The notes beneath the pieces were generated by a model. The model ran no database searches and was not told the origin of the DNA. It saw nothing but the letters and a program-made list of their open reading frames with translations. From positions 79,523 through 103,522 of the forward strand of contig JBFLYP010000008.1 of the NCBI GenBank assembly GCA_040756575.1: a stretch of DNA of 24,000 nucleotides. The letters are read 5' to 3'. The translations under genes and the position numbers were made by a program. Every line of letters starts with the position of its first letter. The stretch's first letter is position 1. Shown piece after piece: positions 2 through 13,170 of this stretch. The stretch is from Bacillota bacterium. GTDB taxonomy: Bacteria; Bacillota; Desulfotomaculia; Desulfotomaculales; Ammonificaceae.

Positions 2-1498
2 AATCTCGCGGAGAAAAGCACCGGCACGTCTGCCGCGCCCGCCGTTCCGTTTCCTTATTACCTGCAGCGTGCGGGTGAGGCCTTGTGCCTCGGTGTTCTG
101 GACCTGCTGGCGCTCGGCCTCAGCTTCACCGTTGCGTCGGCGGTGCGGCTCGAAATCCTGCCGCGTTTGTGGCCGGGGCTCAGCGCAGGCCTCCCGGAGG
201 GCTTCTCCGCTCATTACTGGTGGCTGGCGGCCGTTGTAACCGGGATGCTGGCTTACGAAGGGCTTTATACCCGCCGGCTCTCCTTCTGGCGGGAGTGCGG
301 CGCCGTCTGCAAGGCGCTGACCCTCGGAATTCTCTTAATCCTCGCCATAGTCTCGTTGGGAAAACTCGGCGGTGAAATATCCCGGGCAACCCTGATGCTT
401 GCTTATACGGCCGCTGTGTTTTTAGTACCTTCCGTCCGCCGGCTGGGCAAGGCCGCGCTCTTCCGCTTCAACCCGTGGCGGCGCAGGGTGCTCATCCTCG
501 GCGCGGGGAAGACCGGGCGGGTGATGGCCGAAGCTCTGCTTAACGACCGCTACCGCGGCTACACAGTCTGTGGTTTCCTCGACGACGACCTTGTCAAACA
601 GCGCACAGGCGTGTCGGTGAACGGGACAACCCTCCCTGTCCTGGGCGGCTTCCGGGAGAGCGACCGGGTGATGGCCTTGACGAGGGCGTACGACCTCATC
701 GTGGCCGCGCCGGGGATGCCGGCCCAGGAACTTGTCGGCCTGGTGAACAGGCTGCACCGCCGGGCACCCTCGGTCATGGTGGTTCCCGACCTCTTCGGGA
801 TGCCGGTGGTCGGTGCCGAGGCCGACTACCTCTTCCAGGAAAGGGCGCTTGTCTTCCGGGTCCGCAACAACCTGGCCAGCCCCTTGAACCGCTTCGTCAA
901 GCGCACCTTTGACCTGGCTGCCGGTGGCGTTATCCTTGTGTTTATCGCCCCGCTGCTGGCTGCGCTCTCTGCGGCCGTGAAGCTTGATTCGCCGGGGCCG
1001 GTTTTCTTTCGGCACCGGCGGATCGGGCGCGGCGGTAAGCCCTTTTACTGTCTGAAGTTCCGCACGATGCACCTCAACAACGAAGCAATCCTCCGCGACT
1101 ACTTGGCACAAAACCCGGCTGCCGCTGAGGAATGGCGCCTTTATTACAAATTGAAAGGCTACGACCCCCGGGTGACCCGTGTGGGGCGGCTGCTGCGCCG
1201 GTTCAGCCTGGACGAGCTGCCGCAGCTTTTCAACGTCCTGAAAGGCGAGATGAGCCTGGCCGGCCCGCGCCCTTACCTCCCGCGGGAACGCGGCGACATC
1301 GGCTACTTAGCCGACAGCATCTTCATCGCCCGGCCCGGAATGACCGGACTCTGGCAGGTGAGCGGCCGCAACGAACTTACCTTCGAGGACCGCGTCCGGC
1401 TCGAAGCCTGGTATGTCCACAACTGGTCGCTGTGGCTCGACATCACTTTGCTGCTGCGGACATTCAGCGCGGTATTTGCAAGGCGGGGGGCTTATTAG
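2..1498 (+). CDS. Polyprenyl glycosylphosphotransferase (bacterial sugar transferase, WbaP/EpsB-like); 5' end probably outside window
   Basis: Frame is open from nt 2 with no stop upstream of the tracked TTG at 83. C-terminal sugar-transferase hallmarks: [44 protein letters not shown]. Central Rossmann-like [12 protein letters not shown] and hydrophobic N-terminal helices. Confidence 0.85.
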
Positions 1499-1990: not shown

Positions 1991-2375
1991 AGAAGGAAGA
2001 CGCTGGCTCGAGCAGGCCGGGGAAGACCTCCGCTGGGCCAAAGACCTGGCCGAGCGGGGCGGATACCACCTGGCCTGCTTTCTTGCCCAGCAGGTTAGCG
2101 AAAAGGCGGTCAAAGGTTTTCTTTACGCACAGGGTGAGGAGGTAGTGCTGGGCCACTCCATCGAACGGCTCTGTCACGCCGCCGCCCGCTGGGAACCGGA
2201 ATTTGCCGTGAAGGTGAAGCGCTGGTCCATCCTGGACGGCTATTACGTACCGACGCGTTACCCAAACGGCCTTCCAGATAGTATTCCTGCCCGCGTCTAC
2301 ACCCGTGATGCGGCCCGCGAAGCAGTGCGCTTAGCAGAAGAAGTTGTGGACTTTGTACGCCAGAAGCTCACATAG
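1971..2375 (+). CDS. HEPN domain protein (toxin partner of MNT)
   Basis: W..A..DL..A, GHSIERL and [13 protein letters not shown] are typical of HEPN (PF05168-like) proteins. Overlaps the MNT gene. Confidence 0.8.
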
Positions 2376-2378
2376 CCC

Positions 2379-2410
2379 AAACTTCGAACTAACAAACTTC
2401 GAACTATCTT
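2379..2410 (+). repeat. Heptamer array R2 (TTCGAAC type)
   Basis: aaacttcgaactaacaaacttcgaactatctt, immediately after the HEPN stop (2373-2375). Confidence 0.7.
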
Positions 2411-2457
2411 CTTATCGGTAGCACGCCGATCTTTCACAACTTGATACTGTTAACCGG

Positions 2458-2484
2458 CGCCTCCGCGAAATGGGCTACTTTTAG
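2458..2484 (+). pseudogene. 27-nt relic of the 3' end of a PAPS-reductase-family gene (..LREMGYF*)
   Basis: cgcctccgcgaaatgggctacttttag is near-identical to 8703-8729 and clearly related to 8047-8073 and 4286-4312. A heptamer array follows directly. Confidence 0.6.
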
Positions 2485-2535
2485 AACTTCGAACTGTTTA
2501 ACCTCGAACTATCTAACTTCGAACTATCGAACTAA
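2485..2535 (+). repeat. Heptamer array R3 (TTCGAAC type)
   Basis: aacttcgaactgtttaacctcgaactatctaacttcgaactatcgaactaa. Confidence 0.75.
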
Positions 2536-2552
2536 TGCTCAACCTCCCATAA

Positions 2553-2617
2553 GGTAAAGTATAATAAAAGAAAAAAACCGGCCCGTATCGAACGAAAAGT
2601 AATAGATGGGGGGTAAA
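2553..2617 (+). promoter_or_regulatory. Conserved about 65-nt leader, copy 1 (contains TATAAT at 2560-2565)
   Basis: ggtaaagtataat..aaaaaaaccggcccgtatcgaacgaaaagtaatagatgggggg aligns by eye with 10018-10078 at roughly 85% identity with a 4-nt indel. Confidence 0.45.
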
Positions 2618-2621
2618 CAGG

Positions 2622-2806
2622 AACTTACAGAACATCTACGAGTATATCGCTGCAGATTCCGAGGTTTACGCCAGCCCGGTTTGTAAAAAGTATCGTAAAA
2701 ACAAGCGAAAAGCTCACGAGCTTCCCGCTAATAAGTCGAATAGTTCCTGAATTTGCAGCCTACGGCTTGATAGCGGAAACAAGACGATTATCACGGTTAC
2801 GGTTAA
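2622..2806 (+). pseudogene. ParE/RelE-family toxin remnant (5'-truncated, frameshifted)
   Basis: One frame reads NLQNIYEYIAADSEVYASP. The +1 frame continues VKSIVKTSEKLTSFPLISRIVPEFAAYG. Together these match the ParE pattern (I..YIA.DSP..A ... L..FP..GR.VPE). No start codon or N-terminus. Confidence 0.4.
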
Positions 2807-2839
2807 GAAAAAAATTTTCTCCGAGAGGAGGAATGACTT

Positions 2840-3094
2840 GTGAAAATAGAGTACGATCCTGAAGTAGACGCCCTTTACATAGAGTTTCGCAGCGCGTCAC
2901 CCGTCCATAGCGTAGACATTGAAGAAGGAGTCAGCGTAGACCTGGACGAGGAACATCATATCGTTGGGGTAGAGATTCTGGACGCATCCGAAAGGCTTCG
3001 GGAAAACTTAGCCCGGATCGAGCTAACCGGCCTGCCGCTCTGGGAATTGCCCCTCAGGCGGCGCTTGCCGGCCTCATCCCCCGGTGCAGAATAA
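2840..3094 (+). CDS. DUF2283 domain protein
   Basis: GTG start after RBS gagaggagg. MKIEYDPEVDALYIEF...IVGVEILDAS is the characteristic DUF2283 signature. Confidence 0.75.
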   Translation: MKIEYDPEVDALYIEFRSASPVHSVDIEEGVSVDLDEEHHIVGVEILDASERLRENLARIELTGLPLWELPLRRRLPASSPGAE

Positions 3095-3116
3095 CCTGCG
3101 TAAGATGGGCTTTTGT

Positions 3117-3180
3117 TAACCCTGAACGCCGAACCTTGAACCCTGAACTTCGAACTTCGAACTATCTAACTTCGAACTAA
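3117..3180 (+). repeat. Heptamer array R4 (mixed types)
   Basis: taaccct gaacgcc gaacctt gaaccct gaacttc gaacttc gaactat ctaacttc gaactaa. Preceded by cctgcgtaagatgggcttttgttaa (3095-3119), a possible further relic of the ..LREMGYF* gene end. Confidence 0.8.
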
Positions 3181-3212
3181 GTTGCTGTTATTAAGAATGA
3201 GGTGAGACTTAC

Positions 3213-3437
3213 GTGGTAGACACAGCATCTTCTTCTCGCTTCCAAGAGGTCATCGAAATGGTCGAGACGTTACCGCCGGATGATCAGAAGCTATTGATCG
3301 AAATCATCCGGCAGCGCTTGATCCAGCACCGGCGCGCTGAAATAGCGGCGGAGGTCCAAGAAGCTCGTCATGCGTACCAGCGGGGCGAAGTCCGCCGGGG
3401 CACGGTAGGTGACCTCATGGAGGAACTGGCAGAGTGA
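3213..3437 (+). CDS. Putative antitoxin of the RelE-like toxin
   Basis: GTG start after RBS gaggtgag. Small acidic helical protein. Its stop overlaps the toxin start (GTGA). Confidence 0.55.
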   Translation: MVDTASSSRFQEVIEMVETLPPDDQKLLIEIIRQRLIQHRRAEIAAEVQEARHAYQRGEVRRGTVGDLMEELAE

Positions 3438-3718
3438 GAACCCTCGTCTGGAGTCCGACTTTCTTGCGTGCATTCAAGCGAACGGTTCGCCGGCAGCCGG
3501 AATTGCGAACAAGAGTTGAGCAAACCCTTAAACAGCTTGCCGAGGACCCTTTTCACCCCGCGCTGCATAGCCACAAATTGAAGGGAGAGTTAGCCGGCAC
3601 GTGGGCTTGCACCGTGGACTACAATAACCGTATCCTTTTCGAACTTGTCCGGAATCCAGAGTCAGGTGAGGAGGAGATTCTTCTCTTGACGATGGGCACC
3701 CACGATGAAGTGTACTGA
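3434..3718 (+). CDS. RelE/YafQ-family mRNA interferase toxin
   Basis: F.RAFKR..., DPFHPALHSHKLKGELAGTWACTVDYNNRILF...GTHDEVY is typical of RelE/StbE/YafQ-type toxins. Confidence 0.8.
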   Translation: MRTLVWSPTFLRAFKRTVRRQPELRTRVEQTLKQLAEDPFHPALHSHKLKGELAGTWACTVDYNNRILFELVRNPESGEEEILLLTMGTHDEVY

Positions 3719-3737
3719 ACAGGTTTCTTCTGTCCAA

Positions 3738-3846
3738 AGAGAGATCTTGGCGCTTATAAGCAGACTGGACCCAGGCAGAAAGAATTAAAAGTGTCATTCA
3801 CGGTTTCGTACGCTACCTCCGCAACCATAACAAACGTCGAACGTAG
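3738..3846 (+). pseudogene. 3' relic of a four-helix-bundle (23S rRNA IVS protein family) gene, frameshifted
   Basis: ..LGAYKQT.. then, after a frame shift, KSVIHGFVRYLRNHNKRRT*. Parallels LYKQTEEVKKTIYGFMRYLRSNPKKR* (9486-9859) and LYKQAEKTKSIICGLMRYLRTNPKP* (11740-11991). The stop lies in a heptamer unit. Confidence 0.4.
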
Positions 3847-3867
3847 AACGTAGAACGCAGAACGGCG
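3833..3867 (+). repeat. Heptamer array R5 (5 units)
   Basis: aacgtcg aacgtag aacgtag aacgcag aacggcg. Confidence 0.8.
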
Positions 3868-3872
3868 CAAAC

Positions 3873-4312
3873 AAGATCGCTACGACATTCACCGGCGGCA
3901 AGGACTCCACCACGCTCTTGCACATGCTCCGGCAGGTGGGCGGCGGGAAAGTGCCCGTCCGGGTGATAAAAATCGATACCGGCGCCGACTTCCCGGAGAT
4001 TTACGCCTTCGTTGACCGGCTCTTCACCGCCATCCGCTGGGACGAGCAGGAGGCCCGGCAGGATGAACAGTACTTCTCCGAGGGCAAAGACCCCGATCAC
4101 TTGCGGGTGCAGCCCACCCTGCACTTTAAGGAGATCGACATCTGGAGCTACATCCGCAAGTACGAACTTCCTTTCTGCGAGCTTTACCGCGCGGCTACCG
4201 CAGCCTTGACTGCGCGCCCTGCACCGGCCGCGGCGGCCCCAGCGAGCGTGGCGCCCGCTCCCGGGATAAAGAGGCCGCCATGCAGCGCCTGCGGGAGATG
4301 GGCTATTTCTAA
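3873..4312 (+). pseudogene. PAPS-reductase-family gene, decayed paralog of 7411-8073
   Basis: Nucleotide-level homolog of 7483-8073. It is 5'-truncated (lacks about the first 25 codons). It carries an in-frame 150-bp deletion (FVDRL|FTAIRW; the intact copy has 50 extra residues AKEWEL...GLKAV). A 1-nt deletion at ELYR|(RGYRSLDC) shifts the frame. Tracked ORF 3918-4358 is the resulting chimeric read-through. Confidence 0.85.
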
Positions 4313-4336
4313 CAAATGCGAGATAGGTTACAATAT
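4313..4336 (+). repeat. 24-nt shared joint caaatgcgagataggttacaatat, copy 1 (contains TACAAT)
   Basis: Identical to 8074-8097. Both copies follow the stop of a PAPS-reductase-family copy and precede different TA modules. Confidence 0.8.
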
Positions 4337-4372
4337 CTATAGATCCAAGTTTTTGTGAAAGGCAGAGGAAAA

Positions 4373-4609
4373 ATGAAAAAGGAGTTAATCCAATCGGATC
4401 CTGATGTTATGATGGGCAAACCGGTCATTGCCGGGACGCGGATTCCTGTTTCCCTGATTCTTGAAAAGCTTGCCGCCGGGGAAACGATGGAGCAGATCCT
4501 CCAGGCTCATCCGCGCTTGACGGAAGAGGCGATCCGGGCCGCCCTGGCTTTCGCCGCGGAAGCCGTTAAAGCCGATATAGCATACGCAATACGGGAAAAA
4601 GCCAAATGA
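4373..4609 (+). CDS. DUF433 domain protein (putative antitoxin)
   Basis: ATG at 4373 after ggcagagga. DPDVMMGKPVIAGTRIPVSLILEKLAAGET..ILQAHPRLTEEAIRAAL is the DUF433 signature. ATGA overlap with the next gene. Confidence 0.8.
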   Translation: MKKELIQSDPDVMMGKPVIAGTRIPVSLILEKLAAGETMEQILQAHPRLTEEAIRAALAFAAEAVKADIAYAIREKAK

Positions 4610-4974
4610 TCTTCCTGGCGGATGAAAGCGTTGACCAGCAGATCATCGACCGGTTAAGAGAACACGGCTACGTAGTGATAGCCGTCGTGGAAATGGAGCC
4701 GGGTATTAGCGATACAGCCGTGTTAGATTTAGCGAATGCGCGTGAGGCTTTGTTAGTTACAGCGGACAAAGACTTTGGTGAACTCGTCTTCCGCCAGCGC
4801 CGGGTAAGTAAAGGTATAATCCTGCTACGCTTAGCAGGCCTATCCCAAGAAAAGAAAGCGGCGCTGGTTGCCCAAGCGATAGAGACTCACTTAAAAGAAC
4901 TGGAAGGTTCGTTTGGGGTTATAACGCCTGGCTCCTTGCGTATCAGGAAAATGCGCGTCAAAAAAACTAACTAA
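4606..4974 (+). CDS. DUF5615 PIN-like protein (putative toxin partner of DUF433)
   Basis: MIFLADESVD..L...GY.V..V......SDTAVLDLA..REALLVTADKDFGEL matches the DUF5615/Mut7-C-like pattern. Confidence 0.75.
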   Translation: MIFLADESVDQQIIDRLREHGYVVIAVVEMEPGISDTAVLDLANAREALLVTADKDFGELVFRQRRVSKGIILLRLAGLSQEKKAALVAQAIETHLKELEGSFGVITPGSLRIRKMRVKKTN

Positions 4975-5145
4975 ACCTTGAACCCTGAACGTCGCACCTT
5001 GCACCTTGCACCTTGCACCTTGAACCTTGCACCTTGCACCTTGAACCTTGAACCTTGAACCTTGAATGTCGAACGTTGAACGTTGAACGGACCCCAAAGG
5101 TCCATCCCTTAAGCTGTAACGCCGAACGTTGAACGTCGAACGAGG
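4974..5145 (+). repeat. Heptamer array R6 (longest: 16 phased units, hairpin motif, 4 more units)
   Basis: aaccttg aaccctg aacgtcg (caccttg)x4 aaccttg (caccttg)x2 (aaccttg)x3 aatgtcg (aacgttg)x2, then motif 5085-5114, then aacgccg aacgttg aacgtcg aacgagg. Confidence 0.95.
5085..5114 (+). repeat. Conserved 30-nt hairpin motif, copy 1
   Basis: gaacGGACCccaaaGGTCCatcccttaagc: 5-bp stem GGACC/GGTCC with a 5-nt loop. Confidence 0.9.
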
Positions 5146-5158
5146 GGGGATAAAAAAC

Positions 5159-5395
5159 TTGAAACGCTTTAATTTAACCAGTCTCATATGGAAGGAAGAA
5201 CACGGCTACGTCTCAAAATGCCCGGAACTCGGCGTGGCCAGCGCCGGCGACACAATCGAAGAAGCATTTGCCAACCTGAAAGAAGCGGTAGAGCTTTATT
5301 TAGAAAACGCTAAAGAACTGGGCCTCTTGGATGAATTGAGTTTCGCGCTCAGGCCGGATAAATTTACCGCCTCTTTCGAGGTCGAGGCCCGGTGA
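5159..5395 (+). CDS. hicB: HicB-family antitoxin
   Basis: TTG at 5159 after RBS gagggggg. ..EEHGYVSKCPELGVASAGDTIEEAFANLKEAVELYLE is the HicB/UPF0150 N-domain pattern. Overlaps the hicA start. Confidence 0.7.
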   Translation: MKRFNLTSLIWKEEHGYVSKCPELGVASAGDTIEEAFANLKEAVELYLENAKELGLLDELSFALRPDKFTASFEVEAR

Positions 5396-5642
5396 CCCGG
5401 CTGCCTGTTTTATCCGATACCGAAGTGATCAGAATTCTCCTCAGACTCGGCTTCCAGTACGCTCCGAGGCGAGGAAAGGGCAGTCATATTGCGTTGTATA
5501 AAGCCGGCGAATCTGGACACCGGTTGCTGGTAATCGTACCGAAAAGAAAAGAAAAGAGATTCCCCGCGGCACCCTAATGGCAATTTTAGAACAGGCACAA
5601 GTCAGCCGTGAAGAATTCCTGCGCCTGCTTGGGAGAGAATAA
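5392..5642 (+). pseudogene. hicA: HicA-family toxin with a frameshift in an A-rich run
   Basis: Frame 1 gives ..VIRILLRLGFQYAPRRGKGSHIALYK...VIVPKRKEKRFPAAP* (stop 5575-5577). The expected HicA C-terminus EIPRGTLMAILEQAQVSREEFLRLLGRE* is in another frame (5556-5642). The switch lies in gaaaagaaaagaaaagag (5541-5558). Confidence 0.7.
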
Positions 5643-5660
5643 CGCTTCGTCTGCTGATTT

Positions 5661-5751
5661 GAACCCTAAACGCCGAACGCCGAACGTAGAACGCTAAACC
5701 TTAAACGTTGAACGTTGAACGTCGAACCTTGAACCTTGAACGTTGAACGAA
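5661..5751 (+). repeat. Heptamer array R7 (13 phased units)
   Basis: gaaccct aaacgcc gaacgcc gaacgta gaacgct aaacctt aaacgtt gaacgtt gaacgtc gaacctt gaacctt gaacgtt gaacgaa. Confidence 0.9.
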
Positions 5752-5776
5752 CCCCAGAGGTCCATCATTTTGAGCT
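5745..5776 (+). repeat. Hairpin motif, copy 2 (degenerate)
   Basis: gaacGAACCccagaGGTCCatcattttgagc: the stem carries one mismatch and the 3' tail has diverged. Confidence 0.7.
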
Positions 5777-5804
5777 TAAACGCTTAAGAGAGGAGGTAAA
5801 CCAA

Positions 5805-5888
5805 ATGGAGCTACTTCGCGAAGTGGCTGAAGCGCTGGACATGAAACAGGATTTTCTCGCCCGGAAAAGCCTGAACCTTGAACGTTGA
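5805..5888 (+). pseudogene. Truncated duplicate of the first about 23 codons of the 10082-10360 gene
   Basis: MELLREVAEALDMKQDFLARKSL is identical in protein to 10082 onward. It then runs into array R8 and stops (NLER*). It has its own RBS gaggagg. Confidence 0.75.
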
Positions 5889-5949
5889 ACGTTGAACGTT
5901 GAACGTCGAACGTAGAACGTCGAACGTAGTACGTCGCACGCCGAACGAG
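5873..5949 (+). repeat. Heptamer array R8 (11 units)
   Basis: gaacctt (gaacgtt)x3 gaacgtc gaacgta gaacgtc gaacgta gtacgtc gcacgcc gaacgag. Confidence 0.9.
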
Positions 5950-5957
5950 GTGAAAAA

Positions 5958-6218
5958 ATGGCCACCGAAAAAAAGGATTTAAAAGAAATCTTGCGCCTTG
6001 CCAGCCAGCTTCCGGAGGAGCAACAATTAGAACTTATTACCAAGTTGTCCTTACGCCTCCGCGTTAAAGGTGAAAGAGAAAATACCGGTAAACGATTGTC
6101 TGCTGCCAAAGAAGCACTCTTGGAAAAGACAAAGGGAGCTTGGGCCAACAATCCTGAAATAGAACGCGCGCTTGCAGAACTCAACCGGAGTTGGCAGGAA
6201 TGGGCAAAGGAATTGTAA
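5958..6218 (+). CDS. Putative antitoxin (VapB-position) of PIN toxin
   Basis: ATG after gaggtgaaaaa. Its N-terminus MATEKKDLKEILRLASQLPEEQQLELITKLS is paralogous to 10827-11057. Overlaps the PIN gene. Confidence 0.55.
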   Translation: MATEKKDLKEILRLASQLPEEQQLELITKLSLRLRVKGERENTGKRLSAAKEALLEKTKGAWANNPEIERALAELNRSWQEWAKEL

Positions 6219-6592
6219 TTGATACCGGCGTTATAATTGCTCACCTGAGAGCAGCCGGCAAAACAAAGACCTCTTTCCAGGAGGCTATTGAGCGGTATCC
6301 AAAATGTTATATATCGTCAATCACTGCCTGGGAAATCGAATACGGTGCCTGTCGCGCCGGGCGCCCTTCAGATCTCACGGATATTTTGGGATTGGTTAAA
6401 GTGTTGCCTTTTGACCTGGAAGATGCACGCGTAGCTGCAAAAGTGCACGCGGAACTGAAATCGCGCAACCAAGAAATAGGCATCCGGGACGTCTTTATCG
6501 CCGGAACCTGCCTGGCAAATGGTCTGCCTCTTTTAACCGCCAACGTCAAGCACTTCCGGCGAGTAAGTAACTTAGAGGTAATACAACCTTGA
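6200..6592 (+). CDS. vapC: PIN domain ribonuclease toxin (VapC family)
   Basis: GIVIDTGVIIAHL (first acidic residue), ...ITAWEIEYG..., ...IGIRDVFIAGTCLANGLPLLTANVKHF. ATG at 6200 preferred over TTG at 6191. The stop TGA lies in the first heptamer. Confidence 0.8.
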   Translation: MGKGIVIDTGVIIAHLRAAGKTKTSFQEAIERYPKCYISSITAWEIEYGACRAGRPSDLTDILGLVKVLPFDLEDARVAAKVHAELKSRNQEIGIRDVFIAGTCLANGLPLLTANVKHFRRVSNLEVIQP

Positions 6593-6692
6593 ACCTTAAA
6601 CGTTGAACTTTGAACCTTGAATGTTGAACGTTGAACGTTGAACGGACCCCAGAGGTCCATCCCTTAAGCCTGAACCTTGAACGTTGAACGAA
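6585..6692 (+). repeat. Heptamer array R9 (8 units, hairpin motif, 3 units)
   Basis: aaccttg aacctta aacgttg aactttg aaccttg aatgttg aacgttg aacgttg, then motif 6640-6669, then gaacctt gaacgtt gaacgaa. Confidence 0.9.
6640..6669 (+). repeat. Hairpin motif, copy 3
   Basis: gaacGGACCccagaGGTCCatcccttaagc. Confidence 0.9.
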
Positions 6693-6709
6693 AAAAGGAG
6701 TGACCTGCG

Positions 6710-6907
6710 ATGAAAAAGTCTCTGAAAAACTACGACGACCTCAACGTGACAGAAAAGCGGATCAGCTATCTCTTAGGAGCACGGTTGCGAGAAACAGACA
6801 GGGTCAAGAATGCGATGAAAAAACAGGATGGGATCAGGAAGAAGCATCCTGCACCTGAAGGTTGGGATAGCGCTTCCGTAATTAGAAGTTGGCGGGAAAC
6901 CCGGTGA
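6710..6907 (+). CDS. Putative antitoxin (VapB-position)
   Basis: ATG after RBS aaggag. Small charged protein. Its stop overlaps the GTG of the downstream PIN fragment (GTGA). Confidence 0.5.
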   Translation: MKKSLKNYDDLNVTEKRISYLLGARLRETDRVKNAMKKQDGIRKKHPAPEGWDSASVIRSWRETR

Positions 6908-7310
6908 GTGTTTTAGACGCCTCTGTAATACTGAAGTGGTTCATAAATGAAGAGGACAGCGACCAGGCACTCCGGCTCAGAGAAGAATTCTACTCAGGTA
7001 AAAGGGATATCGTAGTTCCTGATCTTCTATTATATGAGGTAGTGAACGCTTTAAAATACAATCCAACTTTTAAAGAAACTGAAATCAAGAAAGCGGTTAA
7101 AACGCTTTTCGACCTTGGAATAAAGATAATAACTCCCGCTTTGAAAAAGCTAAAGGACTGCGGCTAAAATAAAAATATAGGGATAAGCCGGATATCTCGT
7201 TTACGGATTTAACTTCTATCGTAATTATGCAGGAGCTGAAAATCTCGCGGATTTTACCAGAGGACGAACACTTCATGCAGGTCGGCCTGAATTTCGAACT
7301 TGCTCCATAA
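6904..7310 (+). pseudogene. vapC: Disrupted/chimeric PIN (VapC) toxin
   Basis: The N-terminal part VSVLDASVILKWF...VVPDLLLYEVVNAL stops at 7165-7167 after about 88 codons. A different frame (7173-7310) encodes a PIN C-terminus of another subtype: DISFTDLTSIVIMQELKISRILPEDEHFMQVGL..*. Confidence 0.6.
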
Positions 7311-7311
7311 C

Positions 7312-7393
7312 GAACCTTGAACCTTGAACGTTGAACCTTGAACGGACCCCAAAGGTCCATCAACCTAAGCTTTAACGTTGAACGTTGAACAGA
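7312..7393 (+). repeat. Heptamer array R10 (4 units, hairpin motif, 3 units)
   Basis: gaacctt gaacctt gaacgtt gaacctt, then motif 7340-7370, then taacgtt gaacgtt gaacaga. Confidence 0.9.
7340..7370 (+). repeat. Hairpin motif, copy 4
   Basis: gaacGGACCccaaaGGTCCatcaacctaagc (tail variant). Confidence 0.85.
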
Positions 7394-7410
7394 CAGGAGG
7401 CCCCCTACCC

Positions 7411-8073
7411 GTGAGTCTGAACGAAAAAGAAGCGAAAAGTCTGAAGCTGATTCGCGAAACCCTCGACCGCTTCGGCCCGGACAAAGTCGCTACCACCTGG
7501 ACCGGCGGCAAGGACTCCACCACCCTCCTGCACATGCTCCGGCAGGTGGGCGGCGGCAAAGTCCCCGTCCGGGTGATAAAAATCGATACCGGCGCCGACT
7601 TCCCGGAGATTTACGCCTTCGTGGACCGGCTGGCGAAGGAATGGGAGTTAGACCTCCACGTCCTCCGCAACGAAGAAGCGATAAAAACCATCAAAGTGGC
7701 GGAGGACCCGCTCCAGTGCTGCTACCAGCTCAAGACCGTGCCGCTCCTCAACTTCATCCGGGAGCAGGGCTTGAAAGCGGTCTTCACCGCCATCCGTTGG
7801 GATGAGCAGGAGGCCCGGCAGGATGAGCAGTACTTCTCCGAGCGGAAGGATCCCGACCACCTGCGGGTGCAGCCCCTCCTGCACTTCCGGGAGATCGACA
7901 TCTGGAGCTACATCCGGAAGTACGATTTGCCCTTCTGCGAGCTCTACCGCCGGGGCTACCGCAGCCTCGACTGCGTGTCCTGCACCGGCCGCGGCGGCCC
8001 CAGCGAACGCGACGCCCGCTCCCGGGACAAGGAGGCCGCCATGCAGCGCCTGCGGGAGATGGGCTATTTCTAA
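7411..8073 (+). CDS. PAPS reductase / PP-loop ATP pyrophosphatase family protein (intact copy)
   Basis: GTG at 7411 after RBS caggagg; the tracked TTG at 7378 lies in the repeat. PP-loop-like TWTGGKDSTTLLHML. CysH/CysD-like LRVQPLLHFREIDIWSYIRKYDLPFCELYRRGYRSLDCVSCT. Confidence 0.85.
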   Translation: MSLNEKEAKSLKLIRETLDRFGPDKVATTWTGGKDSTTLLHMLRQVGGGKVPVRVIKIDTGADFPEIYAFVDRLAKEWELDLHVLRNEEAIKTIKVAEDPLQCCYQLKTVPLLNFIREQGLKAVFTAIRWDEQEARQDEQYFSERKDPDHLRVQPLLHFREIDIWSYIRKYDLPFCELYRRGYRSLDCVSCTGRGGPSERDARSRDKEAAMQRLREMGYF

Positions 8074-8097
8074 CAAATGCGAGATAGGTTACAATAT
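8074..8097 (+). repeat. 24-nt shared joint, copy 2 (TACAAT at 8090-8095)
   Basis: Identical to 4313-4336. Confidence 0.8.
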
Positions 8098-8121
8098 AGA
8101 CTGAGAGGGGTGCGCCAGGTA

Positions 8122-8391
8122 ATGAAGATTTTCTATACAGTCGTCCTGAGAAAACTCTCCGACCAGTGGGTAGCCCTGTGCCTGGAAAACGGTTGCGTGG
8201 GACAGGGAACCACCCGGGAGGAAGCCGTAGAGAAGCTCAGATCCGCGGTTTCTTCCATAATGGAGGCAGCACATGACGATCCGGATATATTTGTGGCACC
8301 GGTACCGATTAAGGAACTTCATGAGTTTCTGACCGTCGGCGGCGTCGATCCTGTGGCCGAAACCTTTGAGCTAAGGGCCGTAAATGCCTAA
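8122..8391 (+). CDS. hicB: HicB-family antitoxin
   Basis: ATG at 8122. MKIFYTVVLRKLSDQWVALCLENGCVGQGTTREEAVEKLRSAV is the HicB N-domain pattern. Overlaps hicA by 8 nt. Confidence 0.7.
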   Translation: MKIFYTVVLRKLSDQWVALCLENGCVGQGTTREEAVEKLRSAVSSIMEAAHDDPDIFVAPVPIKELHEFLTVGGVDPVAETFELRAVNA

Positions 8392-8626
8392 GAACATTCC
8401 GTCGCTGAAGCCCCGCCAGTTGGTCCGTCTGTTGGAGGGAGCGGGCTGTCGCTTTTACAGGGAGGGCAAAGGCGATCACCGCCTTTACGTGCGCTACGCT
8501 GAAGGAAAGAAGTTGGTGGTTCCCATAGATATGGGGCTTACGGAACTCTCCCCAGTATATATCTTGCGCGTACTCAGACAGTTCAGGTTCACAGACGCAG
8601 AAATTGAAGAAATGTTGAAATCATAG
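8384..8626 (+). CDS. hicA: HicA-family mRNA interferase toxin
   Basis: LKPRQLVRLLEGAGCRFYREGKGDHRLYV is the YcfA/HicA pattern. Paired with the upstream HicB. Confidence 0.8.
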   Translation: MPKNIPSLKPRQLVRLLEGAGCRFYREGKGDHRLYVRYAEGKKLVVPIDMGLTELSPVYILRVLRQFRFTDAEIEEMLKS

Positions 8627-8729
8627 CCTGTGCCCCTGCACCGGCCGCGGCGGGCCTACCGAGCGCGGCGCCCGTTCCCGGGATAAAGAGGCAGCCATGC
8701 AGCGCCTCCGCGAAATGGGCTACTTTTAA
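8627..8729 (+). pseudogene. About 100-bp relic of the PAPS-reductase-family 3' end
   Basis: Aligns with 7971-8073 (tgcaccggccgcggcgg...atgcagcgcct.cg.ga.atgggcta.tt.taa). Starts right after the hicA stop. Its own stop (8727-8729) is the first unit of array R11. Confidence 0.8.
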
Positions 8730-8800
8730 CGTTGAACGTTGAACGTTGAACGTTGAACGTTGAACGGACCCCAGAGGTCCATCCCTTAAGCTTTAACGAG
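8727..8800 (+). repeat. Heptamer array R11 (5 units, hairpin motif, 1 unit)
   Basis: taacgtt (gaacgtt)x4, then motif 8762-8791, then tt taacgag. Confidence 0.9.
8762..8791 (+). repeat. Hairpin motif, copy 5
   Basis: gaacGGACCccagaGGTCCatcccttaagc, identical to copy 3. Confidence 0.9.
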
Positions 8801-8809
8801 GTGAAAAAA

Positions 8810-9034
8810 ATGGGACTCGAAAACACAAGAGACGAACTGCTCCTAAAACAAATCAACACCTTAGAACGCGAAGTAGAGCGCCTCAAGCGGAACCTTCTTC
8901 ATAACCTAACTGCGAGGACCGGCCGAAAAAAAGCCAAACCCTCTCTGTTTGGAAGCGTCCGGAGCGGCGACATTGCCGATGAAGAGATCCAAAAGGCAAA
9001 GACGGCTTTGTTTAGAGACCTGGAGGATCTGTAG
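8810..9034 (+). CDS. Putative antitoxin (VapB-position)
   Basis: ATG at 8810 after gaggtgaaaaaa; the tracked upstream start lies in the repeat. Coiled-coil-like small protein immediately upstream of the PIN gene. Confidence 0.5.
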   Translation: MGLENTRDELLLKQINTLEREVERLKRNLLHNLTARTGRKKAKPSLFGSVRSGDIADEEIQKAKTALFRDLEDL

Positions 9035-9051
9035 CGCTTATGGAGGAGGAT

Positions 9052-9438
9052 ATGCTGTATGTTCTTGATACCCATGTGCTCATTTGGTATTTCACCGGTA
9101 GTAGACGCCTTAAACAGCAGCTTAAAGAACTCATTGATCATGTTCGGTCAGCAGGTGGACGTCTGTTAGTCCCTACGATAGTGCTGGCCGAAGCAATGGA
9201 CATCGCCGAAAAAGGCCGTGTACGCTTCGACTTCACCGAAATGTACCGGTTGATCAAGGAAGAACCGGAGTTCGAAATCGTCAGCTTCAGCCCGGATATC
9301 CTTGAAGAGTCGACGCGGATCAGTAATATTCCTGAAATTCACGACCGAATCATCGTCGCTACAGCTAAATTTTACCAGGCAGGTATACTAACAAAAGACA
9401 GGATAATCCGTAGCTCAGGAGAGACAGAAACGCCTTGA
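9052..9438 (+). CDS. vapC: PIN domain ribonuclease toxin (VapC family)
   Basis: MLYVLDTHVLIWYF..., ...VPTIVLAEA..., ...HDRIIVATA.....ILTKD. RBS ggaggagga. The stop TGA lies in the first heptamer. Confidence 0.8.
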   Translation: MLYVLDTHVLIWYFTGSRRLKQQLKELIDHVRSAGGRLLVPTIVLAEAMDIAEKGRVRFDFTEMYRLIKEEPEFEIVSFSPDILEESTRISNIPEIHDRIIVATAKFYQAGILTKDRIIRSSGETETP

Positions 9439-9485: not shown

Positions 9486-9859
9486 ATGCCAATCGAAAAA
9501 TTCGAAGACATCCAGGCCTGGCAGCTTGCCCGGGAGTTGACCCAGGGGTGTATACAGCAACAAACCGGAAGGAATTCAGCCGTGACTATGGCCTGCGCGA
9601 CCAGGTGCAGCGCGCCGCCGTCCCCATAATGGCCAATATCGCGGAGGGATTCGACAGCCAGAGCAACCAGACGTTCCTGCAGTTCCTGAGCTACGCGGTC
9701 CGGTCGGCTACCGAGGTCCAGTCCCATCTCTACGTCGCCCTGGACCAAGGCTACATAAACGAAACTACGTTTGCCGAATTGTACAAACAAACGGAGGAAG
9801 TTAAAAAAACGATTTACGGCTTTATGCGCTACCTGCGCTCCAACCCCAAAAAACGTTGA
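9486..9859 (+). pseudogene. Four-helix-bundle protein (23S rRNA intervening-sequence protein family), apparent 1-nt frameshift near codon 21
   Basis: ATG 9486 gives MPIEKFEDIQAWQLARELTQG, the typical family N-terminus (F.DL.vWQ.A..L). The rest of the family signature (VYTAT..F..DYGLRDQVQRAAVPIMANIAEGF...FLQFLSYAVRSATEVQSHLYVA) is in the frame of tracked ORF 9548-9859. Could instead be a sequencing error or a GTG-initiated shorter product. Confidence 0.7.
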
Positions 9860-10030: not shown

Positions 10031-10081
10031 AAAAAAAACCGACCAGTACCGAACGAAAAATAATAGATGGGGGTAGACGAA

Positions 10082-10360
10082 ATGGAACTGCTTCGGGAAG
10101 TGGCTGAAGCGCTCGATATGAAACAGGATTTTCTCGCCCGGAAAAGCCTGACCTTATACCTGGAAAAAGAACTGCGCGACACGGAAGCAGCGATTTTTAA
10201 AATCACCTCCAGATACGGCGTTAAGTCAGTATTTGAACTTGATGAAAGACTGAAACAAGGGAAACTGAAAGAAGAAGATATGCTTGACGACTTCCTTGAA
10301 CTTGACTACCTGGAGGCAAAAAGGGATAAGATCCGCCGTGTCCTGGAGAAGATTCAATGA
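10082..10360 (+). CDS. Putative antitoxin-position protein upstream of the DUF6516-like gene
   Basis: ATG at 10082 after gatggggg. Helical charged protein MELLREVAEALDMKQDFLARKSL.... ATGA overlap with the next gene. Confidence 0.5.
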   Translation: MELLREVAEALDMKQDFLARKSLTLYLEKELRDTEAAIFKITSRYGVKSVFELDERLKQGKLKEEDMLDDFLELDYLEAKRDKIRRVLEKIQ

Positions 10361-11582: not shown

Positions 11583-11792
11583 ATGGATTCTGTCAAGCAA
11601 ACGGCCATCGAAGCCATAAAGCGGCTCCCTGACGGATGTTCCTTGGAGGACATTATGTATCAGGTCTATTTTATCTCGCAGGTATTTGAGGGTTTAAGGG
11701 ACGCTCAGGAAGGCCGGGTAATAACCAGCGAAGAATTAGATGCAGCGCGCCGCCGTCTCGGTTATGGCAAATATAGCGGAGGGCTTCGATAG
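11583..11792 (+). pseudogene. Antitoxin-like ORF whose 3' end is replaced by a junction into a four-helix-bundle gene fragment
   Basis: MDSVKQTAIEAIKRLPDGCSLEDIMYQVYFISQVFEGLRDAQEGRVITSEEL looks like a small addiction-module component. From about 11736 the DNA is homologous to 9603 onward, read out of frame. Confidence 0.5.
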
Positions 11793-11991
11793 CCAGAGCA
11801 ACCAGGTGTTTTTACAGTTCCTGACCTACGCGGTCAGGTCGGCTACCGAGGTCCAGTCGCATCTCTACGTCGCCCTGGACCAAGGCTATGTAACCAAAGA
11901 TACCTTTGATAACTTGTACAAGCAGGCGGAAAAAACGAAGAGCATTATATGCGGCCTTATGCGGTATCTCCGCACAAACCCTAAACCTTAA
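11736..11991 (+). pseudogene. Four-helix-bundle (23S rRNA IVS protein family) gene, 5'-truncated copy
   Basis: QRAAVSVMANIAEGFDSQSNQVFLQFLTYAVRSATEVQSHLYVALDQGYV... parallels 9606-9859. It lacks about the first 40 codons and any RBS. Confidence 0.7.
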
Positions 11992-12078: not shown

Positions 12079-13170
12079 ATGGCCGCAGATTATAGCCATC
12101 TAAAAACGCGCATCCAGGGATGGCTCTTCGAAAAAGTGGTTAGGTACCTGTTACGACTCAACGATTACACCATCATTTCTCTTGACTCATTAGCGGGTAA
12201 AGCAGAGAAATATTACCGGGACAGGGGAAAAGGTTTGGAAATACGCGGGCGCGGCGAGTGGCATCAGATAGATGCGGCAGGGCAGTTTCAATTTATACCG
12301 CCGTTTGTATATCAAATTCGCCTTCTTTCTGAAGCAAAATGTTACCGGCAGACCGCAGTGGGTCTTCCTATTGTTCGCGGATTTGTAGGCGCCCTTAAAG
12401 ACATCAGCGAAAACTACTTTACGGATGTTGATGACCCCGGGAATAATGATTATAACCTCCGGTTTACCGATTGTGGTGCTATTTTTTCCACCTCGGGATT
12501 TTCAGATGAAGCGGAAAATTACGCTTTTGCTCACGGTATCAAGTTAATCAGTTATAAAAATTTACCGATTATGCGGGATATCACTGAATGCATCTTCAAT
12601 TTCGTCGACTCGTTAGAATCTTTCCTCCCCCACATAGCCAAGAGAGAACCTGAACTCCGGCGAGAGATTTGTAACATATTACAGGGTTCTGGCTTTAATG
12701 ATATGCGAGACCACAGTTCGCTGCCACCACAATTAAATCAGCACATTCTCAAATTGCGCGACATACTCTTTGAAATCAAATTTTCCGCCGTCGGTTTAGC
12801 GGCAGGAGGGTTCCCGGTGCACTTGGTCGGCACGCAGGAGTTCCCACGCAAGGCGGTTGCAGAACGTGACCAAGTCGAATGCCACATTTACCACGAACAA
12901 GGCAACCCGTTCCATGTCAGGCTGGTAGACCGGGTCTGGAGCGCTTATTTTTCAGTACCCGAGGTGATGATGAGCAAATTTTTAGCTAATAGAGAAATGA
13001 TGGTTGAATTCAAAGGTCGAAGCTTATCCTTTATTGACATACCCATCAAGATTAATGGTATGCGCCGCATTATCAGGCTTGAGCTGGATCCGAAGTGGCT
13101 GGAACAGGTCAGGAAAACCGCCAAGGACCGGCAATCGAGAAAACAGCGAGGGGCGTCAGATAAGGGGTAG
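12079..13170 (+). CDS. Mrr-like restriction-endonuclease-fold (PD-(D/E)xK) N-terminal domain protein with uncharacterised C-terminal half
   Basis: WLFEKVVRYLLRLNDYTI (FE..v..LL...GY), HQIDAAG (D), LLSEAKCY ((E/Q)xK), VRGFVGAL, CGAIFSTSGFSDEAENYAFAHGIKLISY (g.fiTts.Ft..A..yA....I.Li). I recognise no motifs in residues about 175-363. Visibly more AT-rich than its neighbours. Confidence 0.5.
   Translation: MAADYSHLKTRIQGWLFEKVVRYLLRLNDYTIISLDSLAGKAEKYYRDRGKGLEIRGRGEWHQIDAAGQFQFIPPFVYQIRLLSEAKCYRQTAVGLPIVRGFVGALKDISENYFTDVDDPGNNDYNLRFTDCGAIFSTSGFSDEAENYAFAHGIKLISYKNLPIMRDITECIFNFVDSLESFLPHIAKREPELRREICNILQGSGFNDMRDHSSLPPQLNQHILKLRDILFEIKFSAVGLAAGGFPVHLVGTQEFPRKAVAERDQVECHIYHEQGNPFHVRLVDRVWSAYFSVPEVMMSKFLANREMMVEFKGRSLSFIDIPIKINGMRRIIRLELDPKWLEQVRKTAKDRQSRKQRGASDKG

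Follow-up and report, generated by a model that had tools for sequence, protein, structure and literature searches.

We analyzed a 24,000-nucleotide stretch of DNA from a Bacillota bacterium of the family Ammonificaceae (GenBank assembly GCA_040756575.1, contig JBFLYP010000008.1, positions 79,523 to 103,522 of the forward strand; hereafter, the window), in which a PAPS-reductase-family gene is present as one intact copy and several fragments amid an array of toxin-antitoxin (TA) modules. The gene belongs, as a resident and conserved member, to an operon for cell-envelope polysaccharide biosynthesis and is older than the array, because at least three phyla include array-free genomes that carry an orthologue and the repeat tracts that separate the array cassettes are found only in the closest relatives. 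The best explanation for the extra copies, to which we give a probability of roughly 60%, is that they are scars of recombination between lineages, anchored in this conserved gene, and not functional parts of the array. Retaining the 3' end in every case and drawn from at least three diverged functional alleles, the fragments would then record the rebuilding of a hypervariable locus by exchange between lineages. For comparison we used loci labelled L001 to L018; the nearest named relatives are Ammonifex metagenome-assembled genomes (MAGs). All coordinates are window positions unless a locus is named, and the gene, its copies and their flanking features lie on the plus strand.

Copies of the PAPS-reductase-family gene in the window

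The intact gene (7411-8073) has a GTG start and encodes a protein of 220 aa, identical to NCBI MEW6447656.1; upstream of it lie a heptamer tract, a GGACCCCAAAGGTCC palindrome and a ribosome-binding site (7312-7410). The other long copy is a pseudogene (3863-4312) that is 5'-truncated at a heptamer tract. Local alignment with the intact gene and its flank gave three blocks (3863-4020 with 7473-7630, 4021-4189 with 7781-7949 and 4190-4336 with 7951-8097; 431/474 positions identical), separated by a 150-bp in-frame deletion (7631-7780 of the intact gene) and a 1-nt frameshift (7950). The deletion takes out an invariant pair of adjacent cysteines of the protein. The source record annotates the pseudogene as a 144-aa protein (MEW6447647.1), and its open reading frame (ORF) still scores 50.7 bits against PF01507. 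An identical deletion junction, GACCGGC joined to TCTTCACC, is present in an independent 1.5-kb metagenome contig (L015 1-326), where the deleted allele is free of the 1-nt frameshift and has neighbours of the type seen at L007. As a test for junctions specific to the window, we looked up the pseudogene protein and the HicA-2 protein on other contigs; neither was recorded.

The remaining copies are relics of the 3' end of the gene. One of about 100 nt (8627-8729) starts directly after the HicA stop codon of a HicB-like/HicA module (8122-8626; HicA_toxin E=1.7e-6; DUF7387 for the HicB-like partner) that separates it from the intact gene; after the relic come a (GAACGTT)n tract, a palindrome and the next cassette. 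Positions 8635-8730 match 7979-8074 of the intact gene at 82 of 96 bases, the assignment of bases 8627-8634 being ambiguous. A relic of 27 nt (2458-2484) runs directly into a AACTTCGAAC-type repeat tract; it shares 26/27 positions with 8703-8729 and 24/27 with the orthologues of L007 and L001. Exactly four sites in the window (2458, 4286, 8047 and 8703) fit the degenerate 27-mer CGCCTSCGSGARATGGGCTAYTTYTAR, compared with none in 100 shuffles. A more diverged, probable relic extends from just after the DUF2283 stop codon to a heptamer tract (3093-3119), reads LRKMGFC and keeps the stop codon in register. It differs from the 27-mer at 6 positions and is the sole other site in the window with seven or fewer mismatches, against 0.01 expected per shuffled window at six or fewer; it is probably a fifth copy of the gene. 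Searches of the window with blastn-short and tblastn found no more fragments.

The copies in the window are flanked in two ways. A-type copies are followed by a 24-nt joint and then a TA module, and B-type copies, to which the relics at 2458-2484 and 8627-8729 belong, directly by a heptamer tract. The joint, which is the native A-type 3' flank, follows the pseudogene at 4313-4336, ahead of a DUF433/DUF5615 TA module, and is repeated identically after the intact gene at 8074-8097. It carries a conserved AGGTTAYAAT box, which we describe only as -10-like, since a consensus scan did not call a sigma-70 promoter there. Both kinds of flank are found in other genomes too: the joint with its box is homologous in the window, L007 and L015, and B-type alleles run straight into GAAC repeats in L001, L008 and L017 as they do in the window relics. 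The last 41 nt of the intact gene and of the pseudogene, together with the 24-nt joint, are 100% identical, the remainder of the two copies being about 10% different (P about 0.001), which suggests that this 65-nt end is a recent conversion tract.

A sequence-only reading of the same DNA had described much of this anatomy. The intact gene, the 5'-truncated copy with its deletion and frameshift, the relics at 8627-8729 and 2458-2484, and the two kinds of 3' end and flank were all borne out by the alignments; the start of the truncated copy has moved out to 3863, and what had been proposed as a possible relic at 3095-3119 is now a probable one.

Divergence between the copies

Because the copies differ mostly at synonymous sites, with ratios of nonsynonymous to synonymous divergence (dN/dS) of 0.08-0.16 and dS of 0.35-0.9 overall, the fragments appear to derive from different functional alleles. 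This pattern indicates that they were cut recently from at least three well-diverged alleles and would not fit slow decay in place. The intact gene and the pseudogene differ by dN 0.044 and dS 0.35 (dN/dS 0.126), and true orthologue pairs have dN/dS of 0.14-0.20. The B-type relic at 8627-8729 stands at dN 0.01-0.08 and dS 0.64-0.89 from every other copy; 13 of its 15 differences from the intact gene are synonymous (dN 0.044, dS 0.89). For the pseudogene and L015 the values are dS 0.43 and dN/dS 0.083. The latter comparison admits two readings of the deleted alleles in the window and L015: a short isoform may be preserved, or functional alleles may repeatedly overwrite the flanks of the deletion.

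These values bear on the alternative that unequal crossing-over of heptamer tracts in a single lineage duplicated the gene in place, together with cassettes next to it, and that the copies then decayed slowly and neutrally. The tracts are similar enough to recombine, other cassettes are likewise duplicated and fragmented, and the identical 65-nt end shared by the intact gene and the pseudogene also speaks for this scheme. Neutral decay would, however, push dN/dS towards 1, and the deletion allele also occurs in another metagenome with different neighbours. Furthermore, a neighbour-joining tree places the intact gene, the pseudogene and L015 at about equal distances (roughly 9%). L007 and the array-free loci each have a single orthologue, and no relics were found at the latter. 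We therefore regard duplication in place as unlikely. The view that the gene had been repeatedly duplicated and eroded stands in respect of the multiple eroded copies; in-place duplication fits poorly, given divergence under purifying selection.

Conservation of the gene in polysaccharide clusters

In the window, the earliest gene of the polysaccharide operon to be seen encodes a priming sugar transferase (Bac_transf, 83-1498, plus strand; PF02397 E=1.9e-60), with the PAPS-family gene directly next in array-free relatives. Downstream from 12079 the operon continues with genes for a hexapeptide transferase, kinase-like proteins, two GT4 glycosyltransferases, Wzy_C, WecG and a GDP-mannose dehydratase. 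The order Bac_transf, PAPS_reduct recurs at L008, L009, L010 and L002; at L008 and L009 (76% identity) and L010 (71%) these genes are followed by a Sulfatase gene and further polysaccharide genes, with no TA array. Orthologues also lie in polysaccharide clusters of a Candidatus Desulfofervidus MAG (L011) and a Desulfofervidus-related MAG (L004), at L013/L014, in Thermodesulfovibrio (L012) and in a Thermodesulfovibrionales MAG (L005). Location in a polysaccharide cluster holds for the window and for 9/9 independent related loci. A Sulfatase/Phosphodiest gene adjoins PAPS_reduct or is one gene away from it in L011, L012, L005 and L014, and L013 keeps just a fragment. This partner, which is arylsulfatase-like and misses all model cut-offs, is present in L001, L002 (as a fragment), L004, L005, L008, L010, L011, L012 and L014.

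The conserved context led us to infer a role for the protein in sulfonucleotide- or adenylate-dependent modification of polysaccharide. At L012 the neighbourhood of the orthologue (2285-7947) includes genes for a sulfotransferase, a CysQ-like phosphatase, an APS kinase and flippases, which hints that the subfamily serves polysaccharide sulfation.

The sequence-only reading had proposed that the gene is a backbone or scaffold cassette of the array. That proposal finds no support in the array-free orthologues of at least three phyla, which sit in polysaccharide clusters. When we surveyed homologues elsewhere for the expected embedding in TA or heptamer arrays, only the closest relatives had it, and there at the same locus.

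Relics in other genomes

Relics were also found outside the window. In an Ammonifex MAG (L001), the PAPS-family gene is followed by a tract, a gene for an S8 peptidase of 1305 aa, a relic, a further tract with palindrome and then the native arylsulfatase-like gene (Sulfatase). The relic (L001 7086-7132) comprises about 47 nt of the 3' end of the PAPS-family gene. Two loci from separate metagenomes (L017 and L018) retain just a 79-codon 3' remnant, located after a DUF2442 gene.

The recurrence of such layouts helps to assess whether the copies are an artefact of assembly, in which orthologous haplotypes of co-existing strains were strung together through repeats so that the two long copies do not share a chromosome. 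The source is a MAG contig, the copies are about 10% different with a substitution pattern like that of orthologues, and the blocks are flanked by repeat tracts of up to 115 bp. Against this, the relic junctions fall in unique sequence (the HicA stop codon, for instance, meets the relic at 8626/8627), and the order of intact gene, insert and relic is seen again in the independent MAG L001, as is a truncated remnant in the two independent metagenomes. The pseudogene also has additional lesions, as expected of a redundant copy. An artefact consequently appears quite unlikely.

The 3' end is kept in all six fragments, which measure about 25, 27, 47, 103, 200 and 450 nt. This consistency, with each fragment abutting a tract or a conserved flank, would suit a dedicated entry site like attI, made up of the gene 3' end and the adjacent tract and used by a recombinase encoded elsewhere, each capture duplicating part of the 3' end. 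In several genomes an insertion (HicBA, S8 peptidase, an IVP-family gene or a methyltransferase) sits exactly at the boundary of the gene with its native neighbour, in line with such a site. Yet the breakpoints range from about 25 to 450 nt with no fixed crossover point evident, and cassettes vary upstream of the gene as well. Nor did the 24-kb window yield a recombinase domain in any tested ORF, an attC-like structure, a match to any Rfam family or a tRNA gene. We consider a dedicated entry site very unlikely, and a fixed att site inside the PAPS-family gene is unsupported by relics of such different lengths.

The GAAC-heptamer toxin-antitoxin array

Between 1500 and 12066, at least 12 small co-oriented cassettes, mostly TA pairs, are lodged inside the polysaccharide operon. 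They include MNT/HEPN, DUF2283, RelE-like, DUF433/DUF5615, two HicBA, several VapBC/PIN, TumE and IVP cassettes. The spacers consist of imperfect tandem GAACNNN heptamers, and many hold the palindrome GGACCCCARAGGTCC (5089, 6644, 7344 and 8766) immediately ahead of the following ribosome-binding site. Heptamer tracts and palindrome were found only in the window, L007 (90% identity), L001 (87%), L015 and L017, and in the closest relatives the arrays sit at the same locus as in the window. Tracts are absent from eight array-free loci; in L008 the spacer from the gene to the sulfatase gene holds only two CTTCGAACTATC units. It was in a small Ammonifex-like clade that the array grew up around the PAPS-family gene, occupying intergenic space both upstream and downstream of it. 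Literature searches found no description of heptamer/TA arrays of this kind.

The locus is a mosaic. The segment 3720-6663 (IVP relic, pseudogene, HicBA-1, VapBC-1) is collinear with IVP, PAPS, HicBA-1 and VapBC-1 of L007, and the intact copy occupies a slot different from that of L007. The PAPS-family gene is about 90% identical to that of L007 in DNA (90% in protein). A recombination boundary lies in or near the array, because Bac_transf has only 58% protein identity to its counterpart (L007 1459-3039) as against 88-92% DNA identity for the genes downstream of the array.

The array also holds remnants of other genes. Alignment identified the 3' end of a 23S_rRNA_IVP-family gene as a relic just upstream of the pseudogene (3795-3831, plus strand), mirroring the adjacency of IVP and PAPS genes in L007. 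Further debris of this four-helix-bundle family comprises a frameshifted copy (9487-9859) and a fragment (11738-11991). In the distant genome of L013/L014 a family member (8750-9133) stands directly after the PAPS-family gene (56% identity) and before the Phosphodiest partner. Other cassette debris (5805-5879, 2535-2612 and 6889-7167) consists of a 5' fragment of the TumE-module antitoxin gene, 88% identical to 10061-10155 (where the intact antitoxin gene begins, with its leader), of a copied TumE-module leader region and of a truncated PIN gene. The HicA-1 toxin gene (5392-5640; L015 623-870; L007 4658-4900) contains a (GAAAA)n run. With two units, L015 has a full-length 81-aa HicA; with three in the window and one in L007, both genes are frameshifted. 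The run could possibly act as a slipped-strand on/off switch of the toxin. Directly after the array, a 363-aa ORF (12079-13170) has a weak match to the restriction-endonuclease-like Mrr_cat domain (E=9e-5) and no match to an NCBIfam family, with 92% DNA conservation in L007.

The encoded protein

The intact protein matches PF01507 over residues 26-193 (E=6e-38; 131 bits, cut-off 22.5), which places it in the PAPS_reduct superfamily. Across 35 homologues the invariant features are the GGKDS (residues 32-36) of the PP-loop-type motif TGGKDS, C103, C104, C176, C188, C191 and the tail ER.GR..KE..M..L..GYF. At its start (7411-7440), the intact copy has lost 30 nt in frame between short AAAGAAGC repeats and with them 10 N-terminal codons (AANWTLEQKE), which L007 has and which are conserved for the most part among the other close orthologues that we compared. 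The AlphaFold2 model of the intact protein (pLDDT 87.5) had as its top Foldseek match 2goy_A (E=1e-15, TM 0.76), and all top matches were PAPS or APS reductases, CysD or FMN adenylyltransferases (closest, 2goy, 4bwv, 2oq2, 1zun and a FAD synthase). The CC pair C103/C104 and the CxxC motif C188/C191 align with the ECC and GCEPCT segments of 2goy, whose residues we take to be the Fe-S cluster ligands of the Pseudomonas aeruginosa APS reductase structure.

None of the NCBIfam models passed its cut-off. The CysH models scored 96.9 bits against 154 (NF002537), 83.5 against 165.1 (TIGR00434) and 66.7 against 235.3 (TIGR02055). The best score was to the CysD model NF003587 (132.6 bits, cut-off 195), mainly over the N-terminal half and strongest at residues 3-146, and no gene resembling that of the CysD partner CysN was found in the 24-kb window. 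Housekeeping CysH reductases carry a C-terminal catalytic cysteine of the ECGLH type. Because no cysteine follows C191 in the intact protein, a canonical reductase mechanism is unlikely. Identity as a housekeeping CysH or CysD is ruled out by the model cut-offs, the absent catalytic cysteine and the absent CysN, in agreement with the earlier view that the gene is not sulfur-assimilation CysH. Within the PAPS-reductase superfamily, the sequence places the protein in an uncharacterised subfamily that has predicted Fe-S-type cysteines and lacks the catalytic C-terminal cysteine. Its members span several phyla and usually have an arylsulfatase-like partner in polysaccharide clusters.

The sequence-only reading had also pointed to family members in defence and DNA modification, such as DndC and a BREX type 4 protein, and we considered the gene as a functional component, similar to DndC, SspD or BrxP, of the TA array. 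The embedding of the gene among TA modules and PADLOC matches to BrxP (E=2.6e-15; 53.7 bits, model positions 114-313 of 779) and SspD (E=3.2e-7; 28.4 bits) make this tempting. However, the matches cover just the shared PAPS-reductase domain, CysD and CysH models give much better scores, and the structures closest to the predicted fold are APS and PAPS reductases. Searches with NCBIfam and PADLOC models gave no DndC match, Dnd, Ssp and BREX partners are absent from the window neighbourhood, and the array-free orthologues are in polysaccharide clusters. We rejected identity with DndC, SspD or BrxP, and a defence function of this kind is extremely improbable. Removing this reading returns the gene, which predates the array, to the host operon.

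Proposed origin of the copies

Recombination between lineages could generate the copies as follows. DNA from related lineages would recombine into the locus, pairing within the conserved PAPS-family gene as a homology anchor, and the other side of the incoming segment would join illegitimately further along. The segment would carry a complete gene plus foreign cassettes, and the 3' remainder of the resident gene would be stranded beside the resident tract. Redundant copies would then be eroded by deletions and frameshifts, and selection for one working copy would account for the persistence of 3' remnants only.

Several observations weigh against this scheme. Co-residence of the two long copies rests on the assembly of a MAG contig, and we found no donor genome with the exact incoming segments. 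The pseudogene and L015 share a deletion yet have a dN/dS of 0.08, so that the model needs later recombination with functional alleles. The arylsulfatase-like partner is absent from the window and from L007. The role of the subfamily is predicted from context, and literature searches on the PAPS_reduct/arylsulfatase-like pair and on the subfamily gave nothing relevant.

A different combination of the same elements, which we hold to be unlikely, would make the junction of the gene 3' end and the GAAC tract the founding entry point of an undescribed cassette-accumulation system that builds TA arrays in a polysaccharide operon, perhaps exploiting operon read-through. Nested 3' relics would then record successive captures, and the allele with the 150-bp deletion, which populations share and purifying selection still shapes, would be a variant that is maintained, as opposed to a dead gene. 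What deserves further study here is the GAAC-heptamer/TA array, together with the shared deletion allele.

Comparison with known systems

The PAPS-family protein resembles the [4Fe-4S] assimilatory APS reductases (CysH of P. aeruginosa, PDB 2goy; Mycobacterium tuberculosis, PDB 7lhr) in its fold and PP-loop-type motif, and its CC pair and the CxxC within GYxSxGCxPCT align with the cluster region of 2goy. It differs from them in being only about 23% identical, in lacking the C-terminal catalytic cysteine and in a context of polysaccharide and not cysteine synthesis. To CysD, the small subunit of the GTP-regulated ATP sulfurylase (PDB 1zun), it is similar over the N-terminal half (1zun_A, E=6e-34 in a PDB profile search), and its tail ER.GR...KE..M...GYF is reminiscent of the CysD ...SERQGR...MEEKKRQGYF, a stretch not significant when taken alone. 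Unlike CysD (about 300 aa), the protein is 220-230 aa long and without a CysN partner, and its Fe-S-type cysteines align with no cysteines of 1zun. BrxP (BREX type 4), DndC and SspD have the PAPS-reductase/PP-loop domain in common with the gene, which has none of their partner genes and whose orthologues have a polysaccharide context.

The array is comparable to chromosomal integron arrays and integrase-less attC clusters in its small co-oriented cassettes with their own ribosome-binding sites, its many TA modules, the repeated sequence between cassettes and its high variability between close relatives. It differs in that the window has neither an IntI gene nor attC-type imperfect hairpins, the two elements that mark integron gene cassettes; its spacers are built of GAACNNN units of 7 nt in tandem, accompanied by a short palindrome.

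Remnant gene copies occur at variable polysaccharide loci and where integrative elements duplicate the 3' end of their target gene. The window is like such loci in presenting an intact gene, foreign DNA and a displaced 3' fragment from a different lineage in a mosaic locus with conserved anchor genes. It is unlike the sites of integrative elements in having no integrase in the window and variable breakpoints, the inserts being small TA cassettes bounded by GAAC-heptamer tracts.

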